The position numbers were made by a program, and so were the translations under genes. Below are positions 8,673 to 48,168 of a stretch of DNA of 51,828 nucleotides, piece by piece. The notes beneath the pieces were generated by a model that saw nothing but the letters and a program-made list of their open reading frames with translations, did not search any database and was not told the DNA's origin. This DNA comes from Methanobacteriota archaeon. Lineage in GTDB: Archaea > Halobacteriota > Syntropharchaeia > JACQPP01. The stretch lies in the NCBI GenBank assembly GCA_016207465.1, contig JACQPP010000090.1, positions 1-51,828 on the forward strand, read 5' to 3'. Every line of letters starts with the position of its first letter. Within the stretch, counting starts at the first letter, position 1.

Positions 8673-9374
8673 ATGGTCCTCGCGGGAAAACTCTTTAAAC
8701 TGGCCGAGGAGGCGGAGCCCGCCACCCTCGCCCGCAAACTCAAGGACTTCCGGCGAGAGGAGCAGGCCGAGGTGGACGGCAAGCCCGTGCCCCTCGTCAC
8801 CGAAATCCAGGAACTCAAGCGGGACCCGGGGATGCTTACCGGCTTCCTCTGCCGCGACTACGTGTTCACGGTGCGCTACCGCGACGTCCCCGTCCCCGTC
8901 CAGGCCACCAGCCGGGTCAAGTTCGCCCTCCTCCCCCGCAAGACCAAGAAGAGCGAGGAGACCCTCCTGCTGGTCCTCGACAAGAAGCACCGGGCCAACG
9001 CCGTGGCCGCCCTCTTCGCCGAGGTCGCCCTTGCCGGCATCGTGGAGGCCCGCATCCCCCACGAGACCCTCAAGGGGCTCCACGAGTCCAACCCCGAGGC
9101 CACCAAGGTCATCTTCTTCGACGACATTGACATCCCCAACATCTCCAAGCTCAGCCTCTATGGCCACGCCCTCGCCCAGACCAAACTCTACACCGAATAC
9201 CTCAAGCACGGCAAAATCTGGTACGTCGTCTTCGAGAACCCCCCCCGTGGACCCGGGGGACGCCCCCTCACCGTGGGCATCACGCGCAACTCCATCGTAA
9301 CATTGTTCTCGCGGGTCGAGGAACCCGAGTTCATGGACTACGTGCGGGAGGAGGTCCTGCCCCTCATCTCGTAG
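8673..9374 (+). CDS. Hypothetical protein, divergent partner of the SMC-like ATPase
   Basis: ORF 8586..9374 trimmed to MVLAGKLFKL (ATG 8673). GC3 is high, and I recognise no family. Confidence 0.55.
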   Translation: MVLAGKLFKLAEEAEPATLARKLKDFRREEQAEVDGKPVPLVTEIQELKRDPGMLTGFLCRDYVFTVRYRDVPVPVQATSRVKFALLPRKTKKSEETLLLVLDKKHRANAVAALFAEVALAGIVEARIPHETLKGLHESNPEATKVIFFDDIDIPNISKLSLYGHALAQTKLYTEYLKHGKIWYVVFENPPRGPGGRPLTVGITRNSIVTLFSRVEEPEFMDYVREEVLPLIS

Positions 9375-23918: not shown

Positions 23919-24713
23919 CTACTTCTCGGCCTTCAGGCACTCCATCTCGCGCTCCAGCAGGGAGAGCTCCTTCGCCTCCAGGCTCCGGGGGTCCACGGAG
24001 AGGATGAGGCGGGCGTTGCTGTGGGCCACAATCTCCCGGAGCCCGTAGAGGAACTTGAGGGTCCCCGGGAACCCCTTGGTCTGGACGAGGTATTCGAGGG
24101 CGTTGATGAGCACCACCCCCTCGCTGCGCTCGCGGAGGAACTTGGCGATGAGGAAGGAGAGCTCCTCCAGGTCCTCCACCGCCTGGAACTCCCGGGAGGG
24201 GGGCTGCTGGCCAATCCACACGATGGGGGTCTTGTGGAGCCGGTGGGTGTCGCGGATTCGCTTCGGGGGCGAGCGGGTGAAGCAGAGCCCCGGGGCCCCA
24301 TGGGTCACCAGGTCGGCGAACATCTCCAGGGCGGCCTCGGGGCGCTCCTCCCGCACCAGGTAGCAGAGCCCCCGCTCCAGGGAGACACCGGGCTGGCCCT
24401 CCCGGGGGGCCTCCGCCTCCGAGAGCAGGAGGAACCGGTACTTCACCGCCCCGATGGGGGCCATGTCGAACCTCGCCCCCGCCTGCTCCAAGACCGCCTC
24501 TATGTCCTTCTGGAACCGCTTGAACTGGCGGGCCTTCAGCTCCGCCCGGTAGACCACCAGAAAATAGGTCTCCCTCCGGCCCTCCAGGGTGAACTCCCCC
24601 CTCCCGAAGGTGAGGGGGGTCGGCCCCTTCTCATGGACCTTCAGGACCCGCTCCACCGTCTGCACCGAGGCCTCATCGTAGGCGATGACCAGGAATCCGA
24701 GACCGGCAACCAT
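23919..24713 (-). CDS. Soluble DUF835-domain protein
   Basis: 264-aa ORF. The C-terminal ~150 aa (GLCFTRSPPKRIRDTHRLHKTPIVWIGQQ...GVVLINALEYLV...ARLILSVDPRSLEAKELSLLEREM) align by eye with the C-terminal domains of 28151..29350 and 29417..30655. Confidence 0.75.
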   Translation of the reverse strand: MVAGLGFLVIAYDEASVQTVERVLKVHEKGPTPLTFGRGEFTLEGRRETYFLVVYRAELKARQFKRFQKDIEAVLEQAGARFDMAPIGAVKYRFLLLSEAEAPREGQPGVSLERGLCYLVREERPEAALEMFADLVTHGAPGLCFTRSPPKRIRDTHRLHKTPIVWIGQQPPSREFQAVEDLEELSFLIAKFLRERSEGVVLINALEYLVQTKGFPGTLKFLYGLREIVAHSNARLILSVDPRSLEAKELSLLEREMECLKAEK

Positions 24714-27496: not shown

Positions 27497-28144
27497 TCAC
27501 AGGATTGAGTCGAGCACCTTCTTCTCCGCGAGGCGCAGGTGCTCCATGGCCGTGGGCTTCGCCACCCCCAGAATCTCCGCGAGCTTCGCCAGCCGGACCC
27601 GCTTGGGCTTCTCGTAGTAGCCGAGGCGGTGGGCGAGCCGGAGGGCCTCCCGCTGGCGCGGGGTGAGGGACTCCAGGATGGTGGAGCGGGTGAAGTCGGC
27701 CGCCGAGAACCGCACAATCCTCCAGCGGAACCCGATTCGGTCCGCCTCCCGGATGAGCCGCTGGAGGCCCTCGGTGGAGCCCCGGATGCTCACCCGCATC
27801 TCCCCCTCCCGGACCTCCAGGAGGGGGTCGAAGGAGAGGTCCGTCCGCCGGAGCACCAGCCGGTAGAGGGGGACCGCCCGGTGGCGGAGCCGCATCAGGC
27901 AGGTCACGCCTCCCCCGGGGTCCCGGGAGAGGAGTTCGCACCGGAGCACCGTCTCCCGGTCCACCAGCCGCCGCGGGTCGAAACCGGGGCCCGGAGGCCG
28001 GAGGTCCACCACCGCCGTGACCTCCCGCTCGTCGTACTTCAGCACATGGAGGGAGCGGACCTCGCCCCACCGGGTCACGGAATGGAGCCAGCGCTCATCC
28101 CACTGACCGGGGGGGAGGGAGACCACCAGCCTCCGGAGTTCCAT
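27497..28144 (-). CDS. HTH_10 (bacterio-opsin-activator-type) DNA-binding regulator
   Basis: 215-aa ORF with the C-terminal LTPRQREALRLAHRLGYYEKPKRVRLAKLAEILGVAKPTAMEHLRLAEKKVL. It starts 6 nt after the stop of the upstream 7TM-DUF835 gene. Confidence 0.85.
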   Translation of the reverse strand: MELRRLVVSLPPGQWDERWLHSVTRWGEVRSLHVLKYDEREVTAVVDLRPPGPGFDPRRLVDRETVLRCELLSRDPGGGVTCLMRLRHRAVPLYRLVLRRTDLSFDPLLEVREGEMRVSIRGSTEGLQRLIREADRIGFRWRIVRFSAADFTRSTILESLTPRQREALRLAHRLGYYEKPKRVRLAKLAEILGVAKPTAMEHLRLAEKKVLDSIL

Positions 28145-28150
28145 GCTCCC

Positions 28151-28620
28151 CTACGCCACCCCGGGCGGCGCCATCAACTCGTTCTCCAGCATCGCCCGTT
28201 CTTTCTCGCTGACCACTCTCGGGTCGGTCCGCACCAGCAGCACCGCGTTCCCGGACCCCGCCACCTCCTTCAGTGTGGTCACGAGCCAGAAGTACATCTG
28301 GAACTCGTAGCGGTGGACCATGTAGGCCGCGCCGTCCAAGAGCACCACGGCGTCGGGGGCCTCGCGGATGAAGTCCTTCACCATGTTGGCCACATCGTCG
28401 AGCCGGTTCACGGTCCGGATGCCCTTCTCCGGGGGCTCGGCCCCCAGCCACACGATGGGGGTCACCGCGAGCCCCATCTGCTCGCGCACGCTGCCGGGGT
28501 GGTCGCGGGTGAGGCAGAGGCCCGGCCGGCCGTGCTTCGCCAGGTCCCCGAATATTTCGTGGGCCCGCCGGGAGGAGGCGTCGGGGAACAGATAGGCCCC
28601 CTTTTCGATACTGTACCTGG
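28151..28620 (-). repeat. Paralogous repeat, copy 1 (DUF835-coding 3-prime half of copy B)
   Basis: It aligns with 29417..29885 and includes a 77-nt perfectly identical run (28317-28393 = 29580-29656). Confidence 0.85.
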
Positions 28621-29350
28621 GAGGCTGGGGGGACACCGCCTCCTGGGTGGGGGTGATGATTATCTTGTACCGCAGAATCGCAAAACTGAAAAACGCCGCT
28701 GTGACAATCCCCGCCTCGTTCTCGTCCACCGGGAGGTAGATTCCAGCGAACATGCGACCGGCACCCGTGGCGATGGAGAACCCCGTCAGGGTGCATACGC
28801 CCGCCAGAAGCGCTCCCAGGGCCCTCCTCTCCGCCGAGGAACCCGTTCTCACATACGCCCGCCCCCAGAGGCCGATGGCCAGCAGTGCCGGGACCGCAGC
28901 CACCGCCATGTAGGCCGGAATCAGTGGACCGTACTTCATGTAGAAAAATCCCGCGCCCTCCAAAACCGCCACTTCCGTCGCGAATAGACCGATGTCCTGC
29001 AGGAACAGAGATGTGAGCACGAGAGCGGGGATGTAGGGGAGGACAAAGAACAGGCGCCGGTTCATGAAACGGACTCTCCGGGGAAACAGGAGGCAGAATA
29101 GCAGGAAGGTGGCCGACATGAAGGGGACCAGAACGCCGTTTCCGTAACGGTAGAGAACACGGCTTTCATCCGTGTGCCACCCCATCCGTCCAGGCAGATA
29201 CGCGAGTGCGAAGAGAACAAAGAAGACCAGCAAGAGAAGGAAGACGCGGCTGGCCGTATCCTCCCGGTTGCGCCGCCATACAATCGCGCCGAACAGGGCG
29301 GCGATGCCGATGGTAATCAATGGAAAAATGGCGTTGATGGCCATGTGCAT
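28151..29350 (-). CDS. Membrane protein: N-terminal ~7-TM sensor-like domain fused to a C-terminal DUF835 domain (copy B)
   Basis: ORF 28151..29362 (TTG), trimmed here to the ATG at 29350. The N-terminal ~240 aa are multi-TM. The C-terminus reads GLCLTRDHPGSVREQMGLAVTPIVWLG...AVVLLDGAAYMVHRYEFQMYFWLVTTLKEVAGSGNAVLLVRTDPRVVSEKERAMLENEL. Confidence 0.8.
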   Translation of the reverse strand: MHMAINAIFPLITIGIAALFGAIVWRRNREDTASRVFLLLLVFFVLFALAYLPGRMGWHTDESRVLYRYGNGVLVPFMSATFLLFCLLFPRRVRFMNRRLFFVLPYIPALVLTSLFLQDIGLFATEVAVLEGAGFFYMKYGPLIPAYMAVAAVPALLAIGLWGRAYVRTGSSAERRALGALLAGVCTLTGFSIATGAGRMFAGIYLPVDENEAGIVTAAFFSFAILRYKIIITPTQEAVSPQPPRYSIEKGAYLFPDASSRRAHEIFGDLAKHGRPGLCLTRDHPGSVREQMGLAVTPIVWLGAEPPEKGIRTVNRLDDVANMVKDFIREAPDAVVLLDGAAYMVHRYEFQMYFWLVTTLKEVAGSGNAVLLVRTDPRVVSEKERAMLENELMAPPGVA

Positions 29351-29384
29351 CCGCAAATGCAAATGAAAAGAAAACGAATGCCGC

Positions 29385-29393
29385 TTATATAAA
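29385..29393 (-). promoter_or_regulatory. TATA-like box (minus strand TTTATATAA) for DUF835 copy B
   Basis: It lies in the 54-nt spacer between the two paralogues, about 39 nt upstream of the ATG at 29350. Confidence 0.45.
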
Positions 29394-29416
29394 CATTCAC
29401 TTGTGGCACCGGGACC

Positions 29417-29885
29417 CTATGCCGCCGGCGCCGCTTGCAACTCGTTCTCCAGCATGGCCCGCTCCTTCTCGCTCACCACACGCGGGTCCATGCGAACGAG
29501 CAGGATGCCGTTGCCCGCCCCGGCCACCTCCTTCAAGGTCGTCACGAGCCAGAAATACATCTGGAACTCGTAGCGATGAACCATGTAGGCCGCGCCGTCC
29601 AAGAGCACCACGGCGTCGGGGGCCTCGCGGATGAAGTCCTTCACCATGTTGGCCACGTCGTCGAGGCGGTTCACGGTCCGGATGCCCTTCTCCGGGGGCT
29701 CCGAGCCCATCCACACAATCGGGGTGGTGGTGAGCCCCATCTGCTCGCGCACCCGGCGGGGGGGGTCGCGGGTGAGGCAGAGGCCGGGCCGACCATGTTT
29801 GGTGAGGTCTCCGAAGATTTCGTGGGCCCGCTGGGAGGAGGGGTCGGGGAGAAGGTAGGCGCGACCACCTCGGAGGGTATACTTG
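29417..29885 (-). repeat. Paralogous repeat, copy 2 (DUF835-coding 3-prime half of copy C)
   Basis: See copy 1. The 5-prime (TM-coding) halves of the two genes are not alignable by eye at the nucleotide level. Confidence 0.85.
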
Positions 29886-30655
29886 GGTGGTTGGGGAGAA
29901 ACGGCCTCCGGGGCGGGGCTGACGAAGGCCCCGTGGCGCTTCACCGCGTAGCCGGTGAGGACAACCAGGGGAAGAGGGAGGAGGTCCCCCAGTTCTCCGG
30001 GCCACCGGCCCGTAAGTTTAAACAGGATGTTGGGTGCCACACCTCCCACCAGCAGGGAGAGGACTAGTCCCAACACGAACAGGAGAATCTGGCGGCGCGC
30101 GGTATGGGAACCGCTCAAAAGATAGGAGGCCCCGAATCGGGCCAGCACAAAGGGGACTCCGACCCCCAGGGTGAGCGCCACCAGGGGGAAGAGAGGAAGC
30201 AGCTCGTACTCGAACTGGTAGCCGAATTCCAGGAGCGTCAACGACGTGAGCCGGTACACCATCCCCGAGGCGATGGCGACGGCGGAGGCGGCGCTGAGAA
30301 GGTACACCCCCGAAAGCACCGGTGTCTGGACCCGGAGAAGGCCATCCATCCACCTCCCCGCCCCAGGAGCCGGTGAGGGAGCCCTGGACAGAGCCGGGAA
30401 CACACAGGAAAAATGGGCGGTGATGGCGACCAGCAGGACCAGCAGAGAATGGGAGGCAAGCGCGATGAAGGTGTACTGCTCCGGGGTCATGAATTCATCA
30501 AAAAAATAAAAGAAGGAGACCCCGGCCAGGATGGCCGCGCCAATGGCAAAGAGCTGGTTCGCCCGGTTCCCCGGGTTCCGCCACAACACATAGACCGCCA
30601 GGAACGCGATGCAGAGGAAGGAAACGAGGGCGGGAATGGCGTAGAGAAGGGCCAT
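29417..30655 (-). CDS. Membrane protein: N-terminal ~7-TM sensor-like domain fused to a C-terminal DUF835 domain (copy C)
   Basis: 412-aa ORF. The N-terminus (LCIAFLAVYVLWRNPGNRANQLFAIGAAILA...) resembles the 7TM input region of archaeal histidine kinases. The C-terminal domain is nearly identical to copy B. Confidence 0.8.
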   Translation of the reverse strand: MALLYAIPALVSFLCIAFLAVYVLWRNPGNRANQLFAIGAAILAGVSFFYFFDEFMTPEQYTFIALASHSLLVLLVAITAHFSCVFPALSRAPSPAPGAGRWMDGLLRVQTPVLSGVYLLSAASAVAIASGMVYRLTSLTLLEFGYQFEYELLPLFPLVALTLGVGVPFVLARFGASYLLSGSHTARRQILLFVLGLVLSLLVGGVAPNILFKLTGRWPGELGDLLPLPLVVLTGYAVKRHGAFVSPAPEAVSPQPPKYTLRGGRAYLLPDPSSQRAHEIFGDLTKHGRPGLCLTRDPPRRVREQMGLTTTPIVWMGSEPPEKGIRTVNRLDDVANMVKDFIREAPDAVVLLDGAAYMVHRYEFQMYFWLVTTLKEVAGAGNGILLVRMDPRVVSEKERAMLENELQAAPAA

Positions 30656-30694
30656 TGTCCATCCCCTGCCGCGACAAAAGTTAAAGGTAGCGGT

Positions 30695-30817
30695 TCACCA
30701 GATGCCCAGTTCCCGGATGAGCTGCTGGGTGGTGTACACCCACCCGCGCTCCACATCCCGGCGGGCCGCCCTCAGCGCCAGCCTCGCCTCCGGGGTCAGT
30801 TCGGCCCCGTCCTTCAT
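30695..30817 (-). CDS. Small helical protein (40 aa), antitoxin-C-terminus-like, unannotated sORF
   Basis: MKDGAELTPEARLALRAARRDVERGWVYTTQQLIRELGIW. GC3 is strongly biased. It is divergent from nfo. Confidence 0.4.
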   Translation of the reverse strand: MKDGAELTPEARLALRAARRDVERGWVYTTQQLIRELGIW

Positions 30818-30854: not shown

Positions 30855-30893
30855 ATATTTTTTCCCGCGAACGCAGTTCGCGGGAAAAAATAT
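30855..30893. promoter_or_regulatory. Perfect inverted repeat, 18-bp arms and a 3-nt spacer, overlapping the nfo TATA-like box and start codon
   Basis: ATATTTTTTCCCGCGAAC-GCA-GTTCGCGGGAAAAAATAT, with both arms verified base by base. The nfo ATG is at 30892. Confidence 0.75.
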
Positions 30894-31773: not shown

Positions 31774-31992
31774 ATGGGCGTTCCGGCCACCGTGCGGCGC
31801 TGGGGCTCCTCCCTGGCGGTGACCCTGCCAAAGGAGTTGGTGAGGTCCCTCTCCCTGAGGGAAGGGGAGAAAATCCACATCGAGGTGAAGAAGGAGAACC
31901 CTCTGCGCGAGGTCTTCGGGAAGGGGAAACTGGACAAGCCAATCGACAAGGTGATGCGGGAGATTGATTCCGAGTTGTGGGGCGGGCTGTGA
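31774..31992 (+). CDS. vapB: AbrB/SpoVT-type antitoxin (VapB-like)
   Basis: 72-aa ORF. VRRWGSSLAVTLPKELVRSLSLREGEKIHIEV is a swapped-hairpin motif. Confidence 0.8.
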   Translation: MGVPATVRRWGSSLAVTLPKELVRSLSLREGEKIHIEVKKENPLREVFGKGKLDKPIDKVMREIDSELWGGL

Positions 31993-32342
31993 CGACCTAC
32001 CTCTTTGACACCTACGCCTTCCTGAAACTCTACGAGGGCGCCCGCAGTTATGAGAGGTACTTGCGGGAGGACTTCGTGACCACCGCTCTCCAAATCATCG
32101 AGTTGCACTACAAGCTCCGGAAGATGGCAGACCCGGATGCCGATGCGGTCGTCTCCAAATTTTGCCGCCTGGAGGAAATCACTTGCGAGGACGTGGTGGA
32201 AGGGATGAAGGTGAAGGAGAAGATGCCGGAGCTCTCCCCCGCCGACGCCATCGGCTACGCGGTGGCCCGGAGACTGGGCATCCCATTCCTCACGGGGGAC
32301 GGGCCCATGAGAAAACTGCCGGGCGTGGAGTTCGTGCGGTAG
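31989..32342 (+). CDS. vapC: PIN-domain ribonuclease toxin (VapC-like)
   Basis: It starts VTTYLFDTYAFL at a GTG overlapping the vapB stop (GTGA), and has late acidic residues (PADAIGYAVARRLGIPFLTGD). Confidence 0.75.
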   Translation: MTTYLFDTYAFLKLYEGARSYERYLREDFVTTALQIIELHYKLRKMADPDADAVVSKFCRLEEITCEDVVEGMKVKEKMPELSPADAIGYAVARRLGIPFLTGDGPMRKLPGVEFVR

Positions 32343-34693: not shown

Positions 34694-35482
34694 ATGAGCG
34701 ACAACAGCAAAATCGAGTGGACTGAGGCCACCTGGAACCCGGTCACCGGTTGCACTAAAATCAGCCCGGGCTGCAAATACTGCTACGCCGAGCGCATGGC
34801 CCGCCGCCTCCAGGCCATGGGCCAGCACCGATACCGCAACGGCTTCCGGGTCACCCTCCAAGAAGACCTCGTTGACCTCCCCCGCAAGTGGAAGGAGGGG
34901 CGCCGCATCTTCGTCAACAGCATGAGCGACCTCTTTCACGCCGAGGTCCCATTCGACTTCATCCAAAGATGTTTCGACACCATGCGAGAGGCCGACCAGC
35001 ACACCTACCAGGTACTCACCAAGCGCCCCGAGAGGATGCTTGAGTTCGCCCTAGAGGCCCTGGAGGGACCCTGGCCTCCCCAGGTCTGGGCCGGGACCAG
35101 CGTGGAGAACGCGGATTACAAGTGGCGCATTGATATGCTGCGGGGGGTTCCAGCCTCTACCCGATTCCTCTCTATCGAGCCCCTCATCGGCCCCATGGGC
35201 AACCTCGACCTTGAGGGAATCCACTGGGTCATCGTCGGAGGAGAATCCGGGCCCCAGGCGCGGCCCATGGAGGCCGAGTGGGCCCGCGAGGTCCGGGACC
35301 AATGCCACGAGGCGGGGGTCGCGTTCTTCTTCAAACAGTGGGGGGGAACGAGAAAAAAACTCACAGGCCGCATTCTAGACGGAAGGACATGGGATGAATA
35401 CCCCTTATCTCTGCCGAAAAATAGGCTAACAAGTAGTGAAACGTCATTCTCCAACTCAATCCGCTTAGCAACACAAGTTTAA
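34694..35482 (+). CDS. DUF5131 (phage Gp37/Gp68 family) three-Cys-motif protein
   Basis: 262-aa ORF with N-terminus [31 protein letters not shown] (C20-x6-C27-x2-C30), then [27 protein letters not shown] and FFFKQWGG. Confidence 0.85.
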
Positions 35483-47563: not shown

Positions 47564-47773
47564 GTGATGGCGACGCTCTCTGTTCAGGTCCGCCGCGTGG
47601 GGAACTCCCTGGGGGTCCTCTTTCCCAAGCAGGTGGTGGAGGATATGAAGATTCAGGAGCGGGATGTGGTGAAGGTGGAAATCCAGAAGGAGAAGGTGAG
47701 CGGATTCGGGATGGCCCGGGGGGCGCCGCCCTACGACCGCAAGAAAATCCGAGACGACATCCGCGAATGGTAG
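47564..47773 (+). CDS. vapB: AbrB/SpoVT-type antitoxin (VapB-like)
   Basis: VQVRRVGNSLGVLFPKQVVEDMKIQERDVVKVEI. The ATG at 47567 is the likely start. Confidence 0.8.
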   Translation: MMATLSVQVRRVGNSLGVLFPKQVVEDMKIQERDVVKVEIQKEKVSGFGMARGAPPYDRKKIRDDIREW

Positions 47774-48168
47774 CCTCGTATATTGTGGATACCAGCGCGT
47801 GGATTGAGTATTTTGAGGGCACCGACGCGGGACGCCAGGTGCGGCAGGTGGTCGAAGCCCCGAATCAGATGGTTCTGGCCCCGGAGTGCGTGGTGGCCGA
47901 ACTGAAGATATGGGCCCTCTTGGCCGGGAAGGAGTTCGAGCCCTTCTATGGGGTGGTGCGCAACATCGCCATCGTCGAGCCCATCCATCTGGAGGAGTGG
48001 CTCGAAGCCGCGCAAATCCGGCAGGAGATGAGGGCGCAGAAGGACCGGAAGGACTTCGGCATCATTGATGCGCTGCTGGTGGCGAAACAGCGAAGGCATC
48101 ACGCGAGAATCGTCACAGGGGACCCTCACTTTAAGGGGTTGAAGGATGTCGTGTTCATCAAGGAGTGA
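47767..48168 (+). CDS. vapC: PIN-domain ribonuclease toxin (VapC)
   Basis: It has YIVDTSAWIEYF (first acidic residue), ...ECVVAEL..., DALLVA and IVTGDPHFK. It overlaps vapB by 7 nt. Confidence 0.85.
   Translation: MVASYIVDTSAWIEYFEGTDAGRQVRQVVEAPNQMVLAPECVVAELKIWALLAGKEFEPFYGVVRNIAIVEPIHLEEWLEAAQIRQEMRAQKDRKDFGIIDALLVAKQRRHHARIVTGDPHFKGLKDVVFIKE

Follow-up and report, generated by a model that had tools for sequence, protein, structure and literature searches.

Paralogous seven-transmembrane DUF835 proteins next to an HTH_10 regulator gene in a Methanobacteriota archaeon: predicted sensors with an inactivated KaiC-like output domain

Contig JACQPP010000090.1 of a Methanobacteriota archaeon (GenBank assembly GCA_016207465.1) was analysed as a single window of 52 kb, to whose whole length all coordinates given here refer. 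Three consecutive genes on its minus strand encode two predicted seven-transmembrane (7TM) proteins that end in a DUF835 domain and a transcription factor of the HTH_10 family. In the order of transcription these are gene C (30655–29417; 412 amino acids, aa), gene B (29362/29344–28151; 397 aa from the second of these starts) and the HTH_10 gene (28144–27497; 215 aa), and a further gene on the same strand (23919..24713) encodes a soluble DUF835 protein of 264 aa. All four open reading frames (ORFs) had been proposed, at these coordinates, in an initial annotation made from the sequence alone; they are indeed present, and Pfam agrees with the domains assigned there, i.e., DUF835 in three of the products, a 7TM domain in B and HTH_10 in the regulator. 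None of the four proteins is covered by an NCBIfam model.

The ORF of gene B runs up to a TTG codon at 29362, but translation most likely starts at the ATG at 29344, because the database copy of the protein (P0001) begins there and because the alignment of homologues points to the same position. Direct reading of the sequence confirms that the stop codon of B and the start codon of the HTH_10 gene are separated by only six nucleotides (TAG-GGGAGC-ATG; spacer 28145..28150, minus strand), and the spacer GGGAGC is purine-rich and resembles a Shine-Dalgarno (SD) sequence. Upstream of B, between C and B, lies TTTATATA (29386..29393, minus strand), a presumed archaeal TATA box of perfect sequence, 36–42 nt from the ATG codons of B. 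The window has three exact matches to TTTAWATA, this one included, where 0.04 would be expected, and another of the three precedes the gene for the beta subunit of electron transfer flavoprotein (ETF-beta) at the usual promoter distance. B and the HTH_10 gene thus probably form a co-transcribed, bicistronic unit that has a promoter of its own. Given the position of the TATA box between C and B, this unit may be transcribed separately from C. A possible, weak TATA-like element of C, TTTAACTTTT, was read about 26 nt upstream of the ATG of that gene (30676..30685, minus strand). A scan of the sigma-70 promoter and intrinsic-terminator type, which is not applicable to archaea, gave nothing useful.

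The DUF835 matches of all three proteins lie above the Pfam cut-off (PF05763; 33.1 bits), with scores of 76.9 bits for C (E value 1.7e-21), 75.0 bits for B and 102.3 bits for the soluble protein. The domain covers residues 257–410 of C (29426..29887, minus strand), where it scores 180 bits with our own hidden Markov model (HMM), and in B it occupies 28169..28621 of the minus strand, as delimited by Pfam and our own HMM; the domain of the soluble paralogue is 34% identical to that of B. In the AlphaFold2 (AF2) model of the soluble paralogue, the predicted local distance difference test (pLDDT) score exceeds 90 across the DUF835 part. The best matches of this part in a Foldseek search of the PDB were KaiC (8fwj, E value 8.6e-6; CI domain of 6x61), RadA/Rad51/DMC1, the Pyrococcus proteins PH0284, a RecA-superfamily ATPase, and PH0250, and DnaB, with template modelling (TM) scores to the target of 0.45–0.54. 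When the DUF835 sequence profile was compared with the PDB, the top match was the KaiC-like FlaH, at the Walker-B-like strand (E value 0.015). An hhalign comparison of the profile with a single KaiC-like ATPase sequence was uninformative; the fold assignment came from the structure search.

The initial annotation had raised both a RecA/KaiC-like fold and a nucleotide site for DUF835. The fold is found in the models; the P-loop is absent, the Walker A motif [AG]xxxxGK[ST] occurring in none of 178 DUF835 domains from 150 family members, that of B included. That the domain might nevertheless be a cryptic enzyme or bind nucleotides would be in keeping with its P-loop NTPase fold and with a Walker-B-like hhhhD strand, VVLLDG, which is common in the family. 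However, besides the uniform loss of Walker A, the Asp of this strand is not invariant and is replaced in several members, including the soluble paralogue of the window, which reads VVLINA, and we consider such an activity highly improbable. Based on these models, DUF835 is a RecA/KaiC-fold domain without a P-loop, the 'iKaiC' of the literature. As the loss of the P-loop precludes KaiC-type ATP hydrolysis, the signal would most likely be passed on by protein-protein contacts. The classification itself is not new. The only paper naming DUF835 that was found in the searchable literature (PMC5847659; Galperin et al. 2018) lists 'DUF835 (iKaiC)' as an inactivated KaiC-like ATPase domain, describes it as the output part of response regulators with REC-DUF835 and REC-PAS-PAS-DUF835 architectures in Methanomicrobia and Thermoplasmata and, where it mentions iKaiC, cites Makarova et al. 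2017 for a fuller account. Residues 1–95 of the soluble DUF835 protein, its N-terminal domain, were modelled by AF2, at low confidence (pLDDT 50–70), as a beta-alpha-beta-beta-alpha-beta fold with weak structural matches to the ACT-domain proteins 3w7b, 3obi and 1y7p, and may form an input domain that binds a small molecule.

The membrane half of B (28646..29344, minus strand) matches the Pfam family HisKA_7TM (PF16927) with 48.1 bits, above the cut-off of 28.6 bits, and was also delimited by our own HMM and the AF2 model. The initial annotation had likened the membrane half of C to the 7TM N-terminal region of archaeal histidine kinases; this resemblance falls short of the Pfam cut-off (19.2 bits) but is recovered by a family HMM that was made for the 7TM region from 35 relatives, B and C excluded, and which matches residues 4–248 of C (29912..30646, minus strand) with 77 bits (E value 5e-20). 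By this measure, C carries a genuine but divergent HisKA_7TM-type domain. The AF2 model of B (pLDDT 90; predicted TM score, pTM, 0.80) shows seven transmembrane helices (residues 3–26, 30–53, 59–86, 98–116, 142–166, 170–200 and 208–226), with a beta hairpin in the loop joining helices 4 and 5, followed by an alpha/beta domain; the hydropathy plot of C has six peaks. Because Arg-rich loops follow helices 1, 3 and 5 of B, the positive-inside rule predicts an external N-terminus and a cytoplasmic DUF835 domain, which is joined to the 7TM domain by a conserved P-x-x-E linker. The conserved motifs of the 7TM domain, NPxxxxNRxF and FPR, are on the cytoplasmic side.

Neither B nor C has a Pfam match to HisKA, the dimerisation and histidine phosphotransfer (DHp) domain, or to HATPase_c. 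DUF835 occupies the position of the kinase, as initially annotated, and without a DHp or catalytic domain phosphotransfer within B and C is impossible. The same annotation had read the membrane domains as sensors and not as transporters, and this reading agrees with the seven-helix bundle and with HisKA_7TM, the N-terminal sensor region of histidine kinases, being the sole Pfam family matched. That they are transporters or structural membrane proteins can be given almost no weight: HisKA_7TM has no known ligand, which would leave room for such a role, but neither Pfam nor the fold search returned a transporter family, the structural matches are to receptor- or rhodopsin-type 7TM bundles, and kinases, cyclases and RCK domains are found fused to the same 7TM domain elsewhere. 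Foldseek matches of full-length B were weak and mostly to 7TM bundles of the G protein-coupled receptor (GPCR) and rhodopsin types; homology to these was rejected, the matches being weak and generic.

The two halves of B and C differ sharply in their divergence. The DUF835 halves share 85% identity, with a synonymous divergence (dS) of 0.57 and a nonsynonymous divergence (dN) of 0.09, and include a 30-codon stretch that is 98% identical in DNA, whereas the sensor halves are saturated (dS 2.2, dN 1.06) and only 23% identical. The G+C content at third codon positions (GC3) is 0.75 and 0.79 in the sensor halves of B and C, respectively, and 0.93 and 0.87 in their DUF835 halves, compared with 0.94 in the HTH_10 gene, 0.95 in a major facilitator superfamily (MFS) transporter gene and 0.91 +/- 0.05 in the other genes of the window; the sensor modules thus look compositionally foreign or fast-evolving. 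From the near-identical DUF835 halves, the saturated sensor halves and the atypical GC3, we infer that B and C are mosaics in which differing sensor modules are placed on a homogenised output module. Such a pattern, which we read as concerted evolution of the DUF835 halves, would fit a common partner or hetero-oligomerisation.

When B, the HTH_10 protein or a 37-sequence profile served as the query in word-indexed homologue searches, nearly all hits were the proteins of the window itself. The family was collected by an exhaustive HMMER search, which yielded 1,666 representative clusters at an E value below 1e-3, and dozens of relatives of 390–415 aa align with B over its full length. Among the top 110 relatives, DUF835 is present in all and HisKA_7TM in 57, so that the 7TM-DUF835 architecture is common and typifies about half of the closest relatives; other domains found in this set are PAS, GAF, REC, CBS, V4R, HAMP/4HB_MCP and TarH. 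Longer members have the architectures 7TM-DUF835-DUF835, 7TM-DUF835-adenylate/guanylate cyclase, 7TM-DUF835-TrkA (RCK) and TM-DUF835-winged helix, where TM denotes a transmembrane region, and tandem DUF835 domains occur in 26 of 150 relatives. In six proteins (P0050, P0088, P0123, P0086, P0009 and P0031), DUF835 is followed by an additional output domain, which is an adenylate/guanylate cyclase, TrkA_N/TrkA_C (RCK), a MarR-like winged helix or a second DUF835. Since DUF835 follows sensor domains or stands between them, and precedes outputs that are enzymatic or bind DNA, these architectures give good support to its being a non-enzymatic signalling module, i.e., a transmitter or scaffold. The earlier suggestion that it serves as a signal-output or docking domain is therefore reasonable given the fusions to input and output domains, but neither this idea nor the assignment to signalling is new.

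Gene neighbourhoods of other family members also point to signalling. One subfamily has a gene for a membrane histidine kinase 0–2 nt downstream of the 7TM-DUF835 gene (L085:5635-9110, L087:2954-7189, L089:1271-5914 and L090:707-3634), and in two of these loci a third gene after the kinase was identified, encoding REC in L085 and REC-PAS-DUF835 in L087. The latter case, read from gene order, is one of two DUF835 proteins within a single two-component operon. The notion that the downstream kinases are soluble and need a separate membrane sensor was rejected, as they carry 4–6 transmembrane segments. A Methanomassiliicoccaceae metagenome-assembled genome (MAG) has three tandem 7TM-DUF835 genes (L057:7248-10938), in the third of which a frameshift or an assembly error separates a 7TM ORF from a DUF835 ORF. 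In 38 of the loci L001–L080, these being from Thermoplasmata MAGs, a 7TM- or TM-DUF835 gene is followed by a thioredoxin gene at a distance of -17 to +99 nt (e.g., L002:7440-8750 and 8794-9207); the thioredoxin is canonical, with WCGPC in 38 of 38, while the DUF835 proteins are down to 43% identical to one another. Two partners of KaiC, KaiB and the N-terminal domain of SasA, have thioredoxin-like folds, and for this reason the pair may, by analogy, be more than synteny. Taken as a whole, the contexts elsewhere support a function in signalling, possibly with contacts between DUF835 domains, and do not indicate a fixed partner.

One further context bears on the question of whether DUF835 serves, as a subunit or adaptor, an active KaiC-like ATPase whose gene would lie elsewhere in the genome. 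In L081 (L081:3218-6819), a gene for a TM-DUF835 protein of 453 aa is preceded, at a distance of 22 nt, by that for a KaiC-like ATPase (PF06745, 218 aa), and a divergent gene for a stand-alone DUF835 protein of 148 aa and a REC gene are found alongside; L082–L084 represent the same locus. Together with the RecA/KaiC fold of DUF835, the tandem domains mentioned above, which recall the two domains of KaiC, and the proposal of a KaiC hub (Makarova et al. 2017, as cited in PMC5847659), this arrangement favours the adaptor role. However, the pairing of DUF835 with an ATPase was seen in this one independent context only, and a phmmer search found no KaiC-like ATPase in the 52-kb window. We regard the role as possible but rather unlikely, and it would be compatible with the interpretation of B and C proposed below.

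The product of the gene downstream of B has an N-terminal domain of about 150 aa and a C-terminal HTH_10 domain, which matches Pfam (PF04967; cut-off 23.1 bits) with 75.5 bits over residues 160–211 of 215 (27512..27667, minus strand). At an E value below 0.1, its only Pfam matches were to HTH families, with no GAF, PAS or BAT domain, and none of these three was matched in 15 members of its subfamily, one of which had HVO_0513_N. The label 'Bat-type', given to it initially, thus holds for the DNA-binding domain but not for the remainder of the protein. The subfamily (L098–L113) consists of proteins of 215–225 aa that share the N-terminal domain and are mostly found alone. The possibility that this N-terminal domain is itself DUF835-like was rejected, since a profile-profile comparison shows no relationship.

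The initial annotation named as refuting its own proposal, control of the HTH_10 protein by DUF835, the case that DUF835 genes elsewhere are not preferentially next to HTH_10 genes. The sample consisted of 97 other loci with 105 DUF835 genes; 80 of the loci came from species-representative genomes, mostly MAGs of Thermoplasmata and Methanomassiliicoccales, and 17 from look-ups of individual homologues. With an HTH_10 HMM and a motif search, no HTH_10 gene was found to adjoin any of the 105 DUF835 genes. HTH_10 genes were present in only two of the 97 loci, L043 and L070, more than 6 kb downstream and with unrelated genes intervening; both encode orthologues of the regulator of the window, with 33% identity and the same N-terminal domain. 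The closest homologues of B have unrelated neighbours: the gene for P0004 (43% identity) is flanked by a phosphoribosyl pyrophosphate (PRPP) synthetase gene and a ParA/MinD-like gene, while that for P0007 (32% identity) is monocistronic amid formate-dehydrogenase genes. The sample is redundant, the same downstream gene recurring in 38 loci (thioredoxin) and in a further 19 (enolase), so that the 97 loci amount to about ten independent contexts. The reverse sample, 80 metagenome loci with HTH_10 relatives (558 kb in total), contained neither a DUF835 gene nor a 7TM gene of the family type; in 14 of the 80, the relatives have the same N-terminal domain. Even with this redundancy, the adjacency does not recur, with 0/105 and 0/80 in the two samples, which is the outcome that the initial annotation had named as refuting, and the juxtaposition of B with an HTH_10 gene is, on this evidence, lineage-specific.

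These results bear directly on the idea of a dedicated module, made up of the 7TM sensor, DUF835 and the HTH_10 protein, in which the regulator would be docked to and directly controlled by DUF835. Such a module would be consistent with the 6-nt junction and its SD-like spacer, with two relatives, P0086 among them, in which DUF835 is fused to a winged-helix DNA-binding domain, and with the tight coupling of other 7TM-DUF835 genes to signalling effectors. Set against these are the counts just given, the distance of more than 6 kb between the HTH_10 orthologues of L043 and L070 and the nearest DUF835 gene, and the finding of neither profile similarity nor a known interface between the N-terminal domain of the HTH_10 protein and DUF835. 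A dedicated module is thus unlikely; direct control of the HTH_10 protein by DUF835 is possible, the evidence for it being one 6-nt junction. A different account holds that the HTH_10 protein is an ordinary local regulator of itself or its neighbours, which came to be co-transcribed with B by a rearrangement and has no physical coupling to DUF835. The non-conserved pairing, the solitary occurrence of the small HTH_10 proteins of this subfamily in the 80 loci, and the GC3 of the B and C sensor halves (0.75/0.79, as opposed to 0.94 for HTH_10), which suggests a different history, all speak in its favour. Yet genes on the same strand separated by 6 nt are usually part of one operon, the partners in which are often related in function, and we would put this account at appreciably less than even odds.

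We propose that B and C are paralogous 7TM sensors whose non-catalytic DUF835 output acts through protein contacts and that B is co-transcribed with the HTH_10 gene, a reading to which we assign a probability of roughly 0.6. According to this proposal, the 7TM domains of B and C would sense a membrane or extracellular cue, and the signal would pass through the P-x-x-E linker to the cytoplasmic DUF835 domain. This domain would transmit it by contacting either a cytoplasmic effector or the DUF835 domains of C, B or the soluble paralogue. The HTH_10 regulator may be the local output of B, e.g., a protein held at the membrane or released from it; alternatively, it might regulate the operon only. 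Several points weigh against the proposal. The pairing with HTH_10 is unique to the window and could be an accident of gene order, precisely because it was seen only there. The context sample boils down to roughly ten independent contexts, and oligomerisation and ligand sensing are argued by analogy from relatives. Moreover, a phmmer search of the ORFs of the window found no KaiC-like ATPase, REC domain or kinase core, and hence no alternative local partner is visible. To our knowledge, no DUF835 protein has been the subject of an experimental study.

A more specific, kinase-free route can be envisaged, in which B, perhaps in a hetero-oligomer that includes C and the soluble paralogue, would bind the HTH_10 factor via DUF835 and release or activate it on receipt of the cue. 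This is speculative and, in our estimate, improbable; if true, DUF835 would for the first time have a defined output, and the proposed KaiC-type signalling network would have a simple model consisting of two genes.

The genes around the locus have housekeeping functions and encode a SpoU methylase, a metallophosphoesterase, endonuclease IV and PAC2. Immediately upstream of C lies a 40-aa ORF, MKDGAELTPEARLALRAARRDVERGWVYTTQQLIRELGIW (30695–30817, minus strand), which has no Pfam match and is a putative gene only. A perfect inverted repeat of 18 + 3 + 18 nt (30855–30893; ATATTTTTTCCCGCGAAC-TGC-GTTCGCGGGAAAAAATAT) is located in the divergent intergenic region between the endonuclease IV gene (ATG at 30892) and the minus-strand genes toward C, where it overlaps the TATA-like ATTTATAT. 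This repeat may be an operator or a hairpin in the 5' untranslated region (5'-UTR). A scan of the window for the half-site of this palindrome near nfo found no repeats above chance, which leaves nothing to link it to the HTH_10 protein. A MazE/AbrB-type antitoxin gene immediately downstream of endonuclease IV overlaps a PIN-domain toxin gene (31774–32342, plus strand) as a VapBC-like pair, and a second ORF (47767–48168, plus strand) was judged PIN-like by eye from its sequence alone. A DUF5131 gene (34694–35482, plus strand; 346 bits) has a GC3 of 0.76 and a local G+C content of 0.59, compared with about 0.68, and may belong to a mobile element that has integrated there.

The locus adds nothing new on the DUF835 domain as such; it provides a new member of a predicted signalling family. 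DUF835 is a sizeable archaeal family that stands in for the kinase in many sensor proteins, and the value of the locus lies in a very compact arrangement of one sensor and one transcription factor, presumably on one transcript. Should the pairing prove functional, the role of a dead KaiC domain could be tested with it. The wider survey is probably the more useful lead, with its operons of 7TM-DUF835, histidine kinase and REC(-PAS-DUF835), its cyclase, RCK and winged helix-turn-helix (wHTH) fusions, and its tandem DUF835 domains.

Among known systems, the iKaiC response regulators (PMC5847659) share with the proteins of the window the Pfam family, the RecA/KaiC fold without a P-loop, the position of the domain at the output end and the lineages in which they occur, i.e., Thermoplasmata and methanogens. 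They differ in their input, which is a 7TM domain in B and C and a small, perhaps ACT-like domain in the soluble paralogue, in place of a phosphorylatable REC; furthermore, no kinase or REC gene is near B and C, and one of the two is predicted to be co-transcribed with an HTH_10 regulator gene. The HisKA_7TM sensor histidine kinases (PF16927 with HisKA/HATPase_c), of which VNG_2180C is an example named in PMC5847659, have a homologous seven-helix N-terminal domain with the NPxxxxNRxF and FPR motifs, but in B and C DUF835 replaces the DHp and catalytic domains. The KaiC and KaiC-like ATPases (cyanobacterial KaiC, ArlH/FlaH and PH0284) share the fold and, in the Walker-B strand, a weak profile similarity to FlaH, and the tandem domains of some DUF835 members resemble KaiC CI-CII. 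Unlike KaiC, DUF835 has no Walker A motif, comprises only about 150 residues and is membrane-anchored, and assembly into a ring is conjectural. With Bat and other haloarchaeal HTH_10 regulators, the HTH_10 protein has in common the C-terminal DNA-binding domain identified at 75.5 bits, but it lacks GAF, PAS and BAT, and its N-terminal domain of about 150 aa is at best HVO_0513_N-like. Transcription factors are sequestered at the membrane by other systems, such as anti-sigma factors and Mlc-PtsG; the mechanism would be the same, by analogy and with no homology, if B holds the HTH_10 protein until a signal arrives. Archaeal signalling in general is thought to proceed largely by protein-protein contacts and KaiC-like proteins, and less by DNA-binding response regulators.

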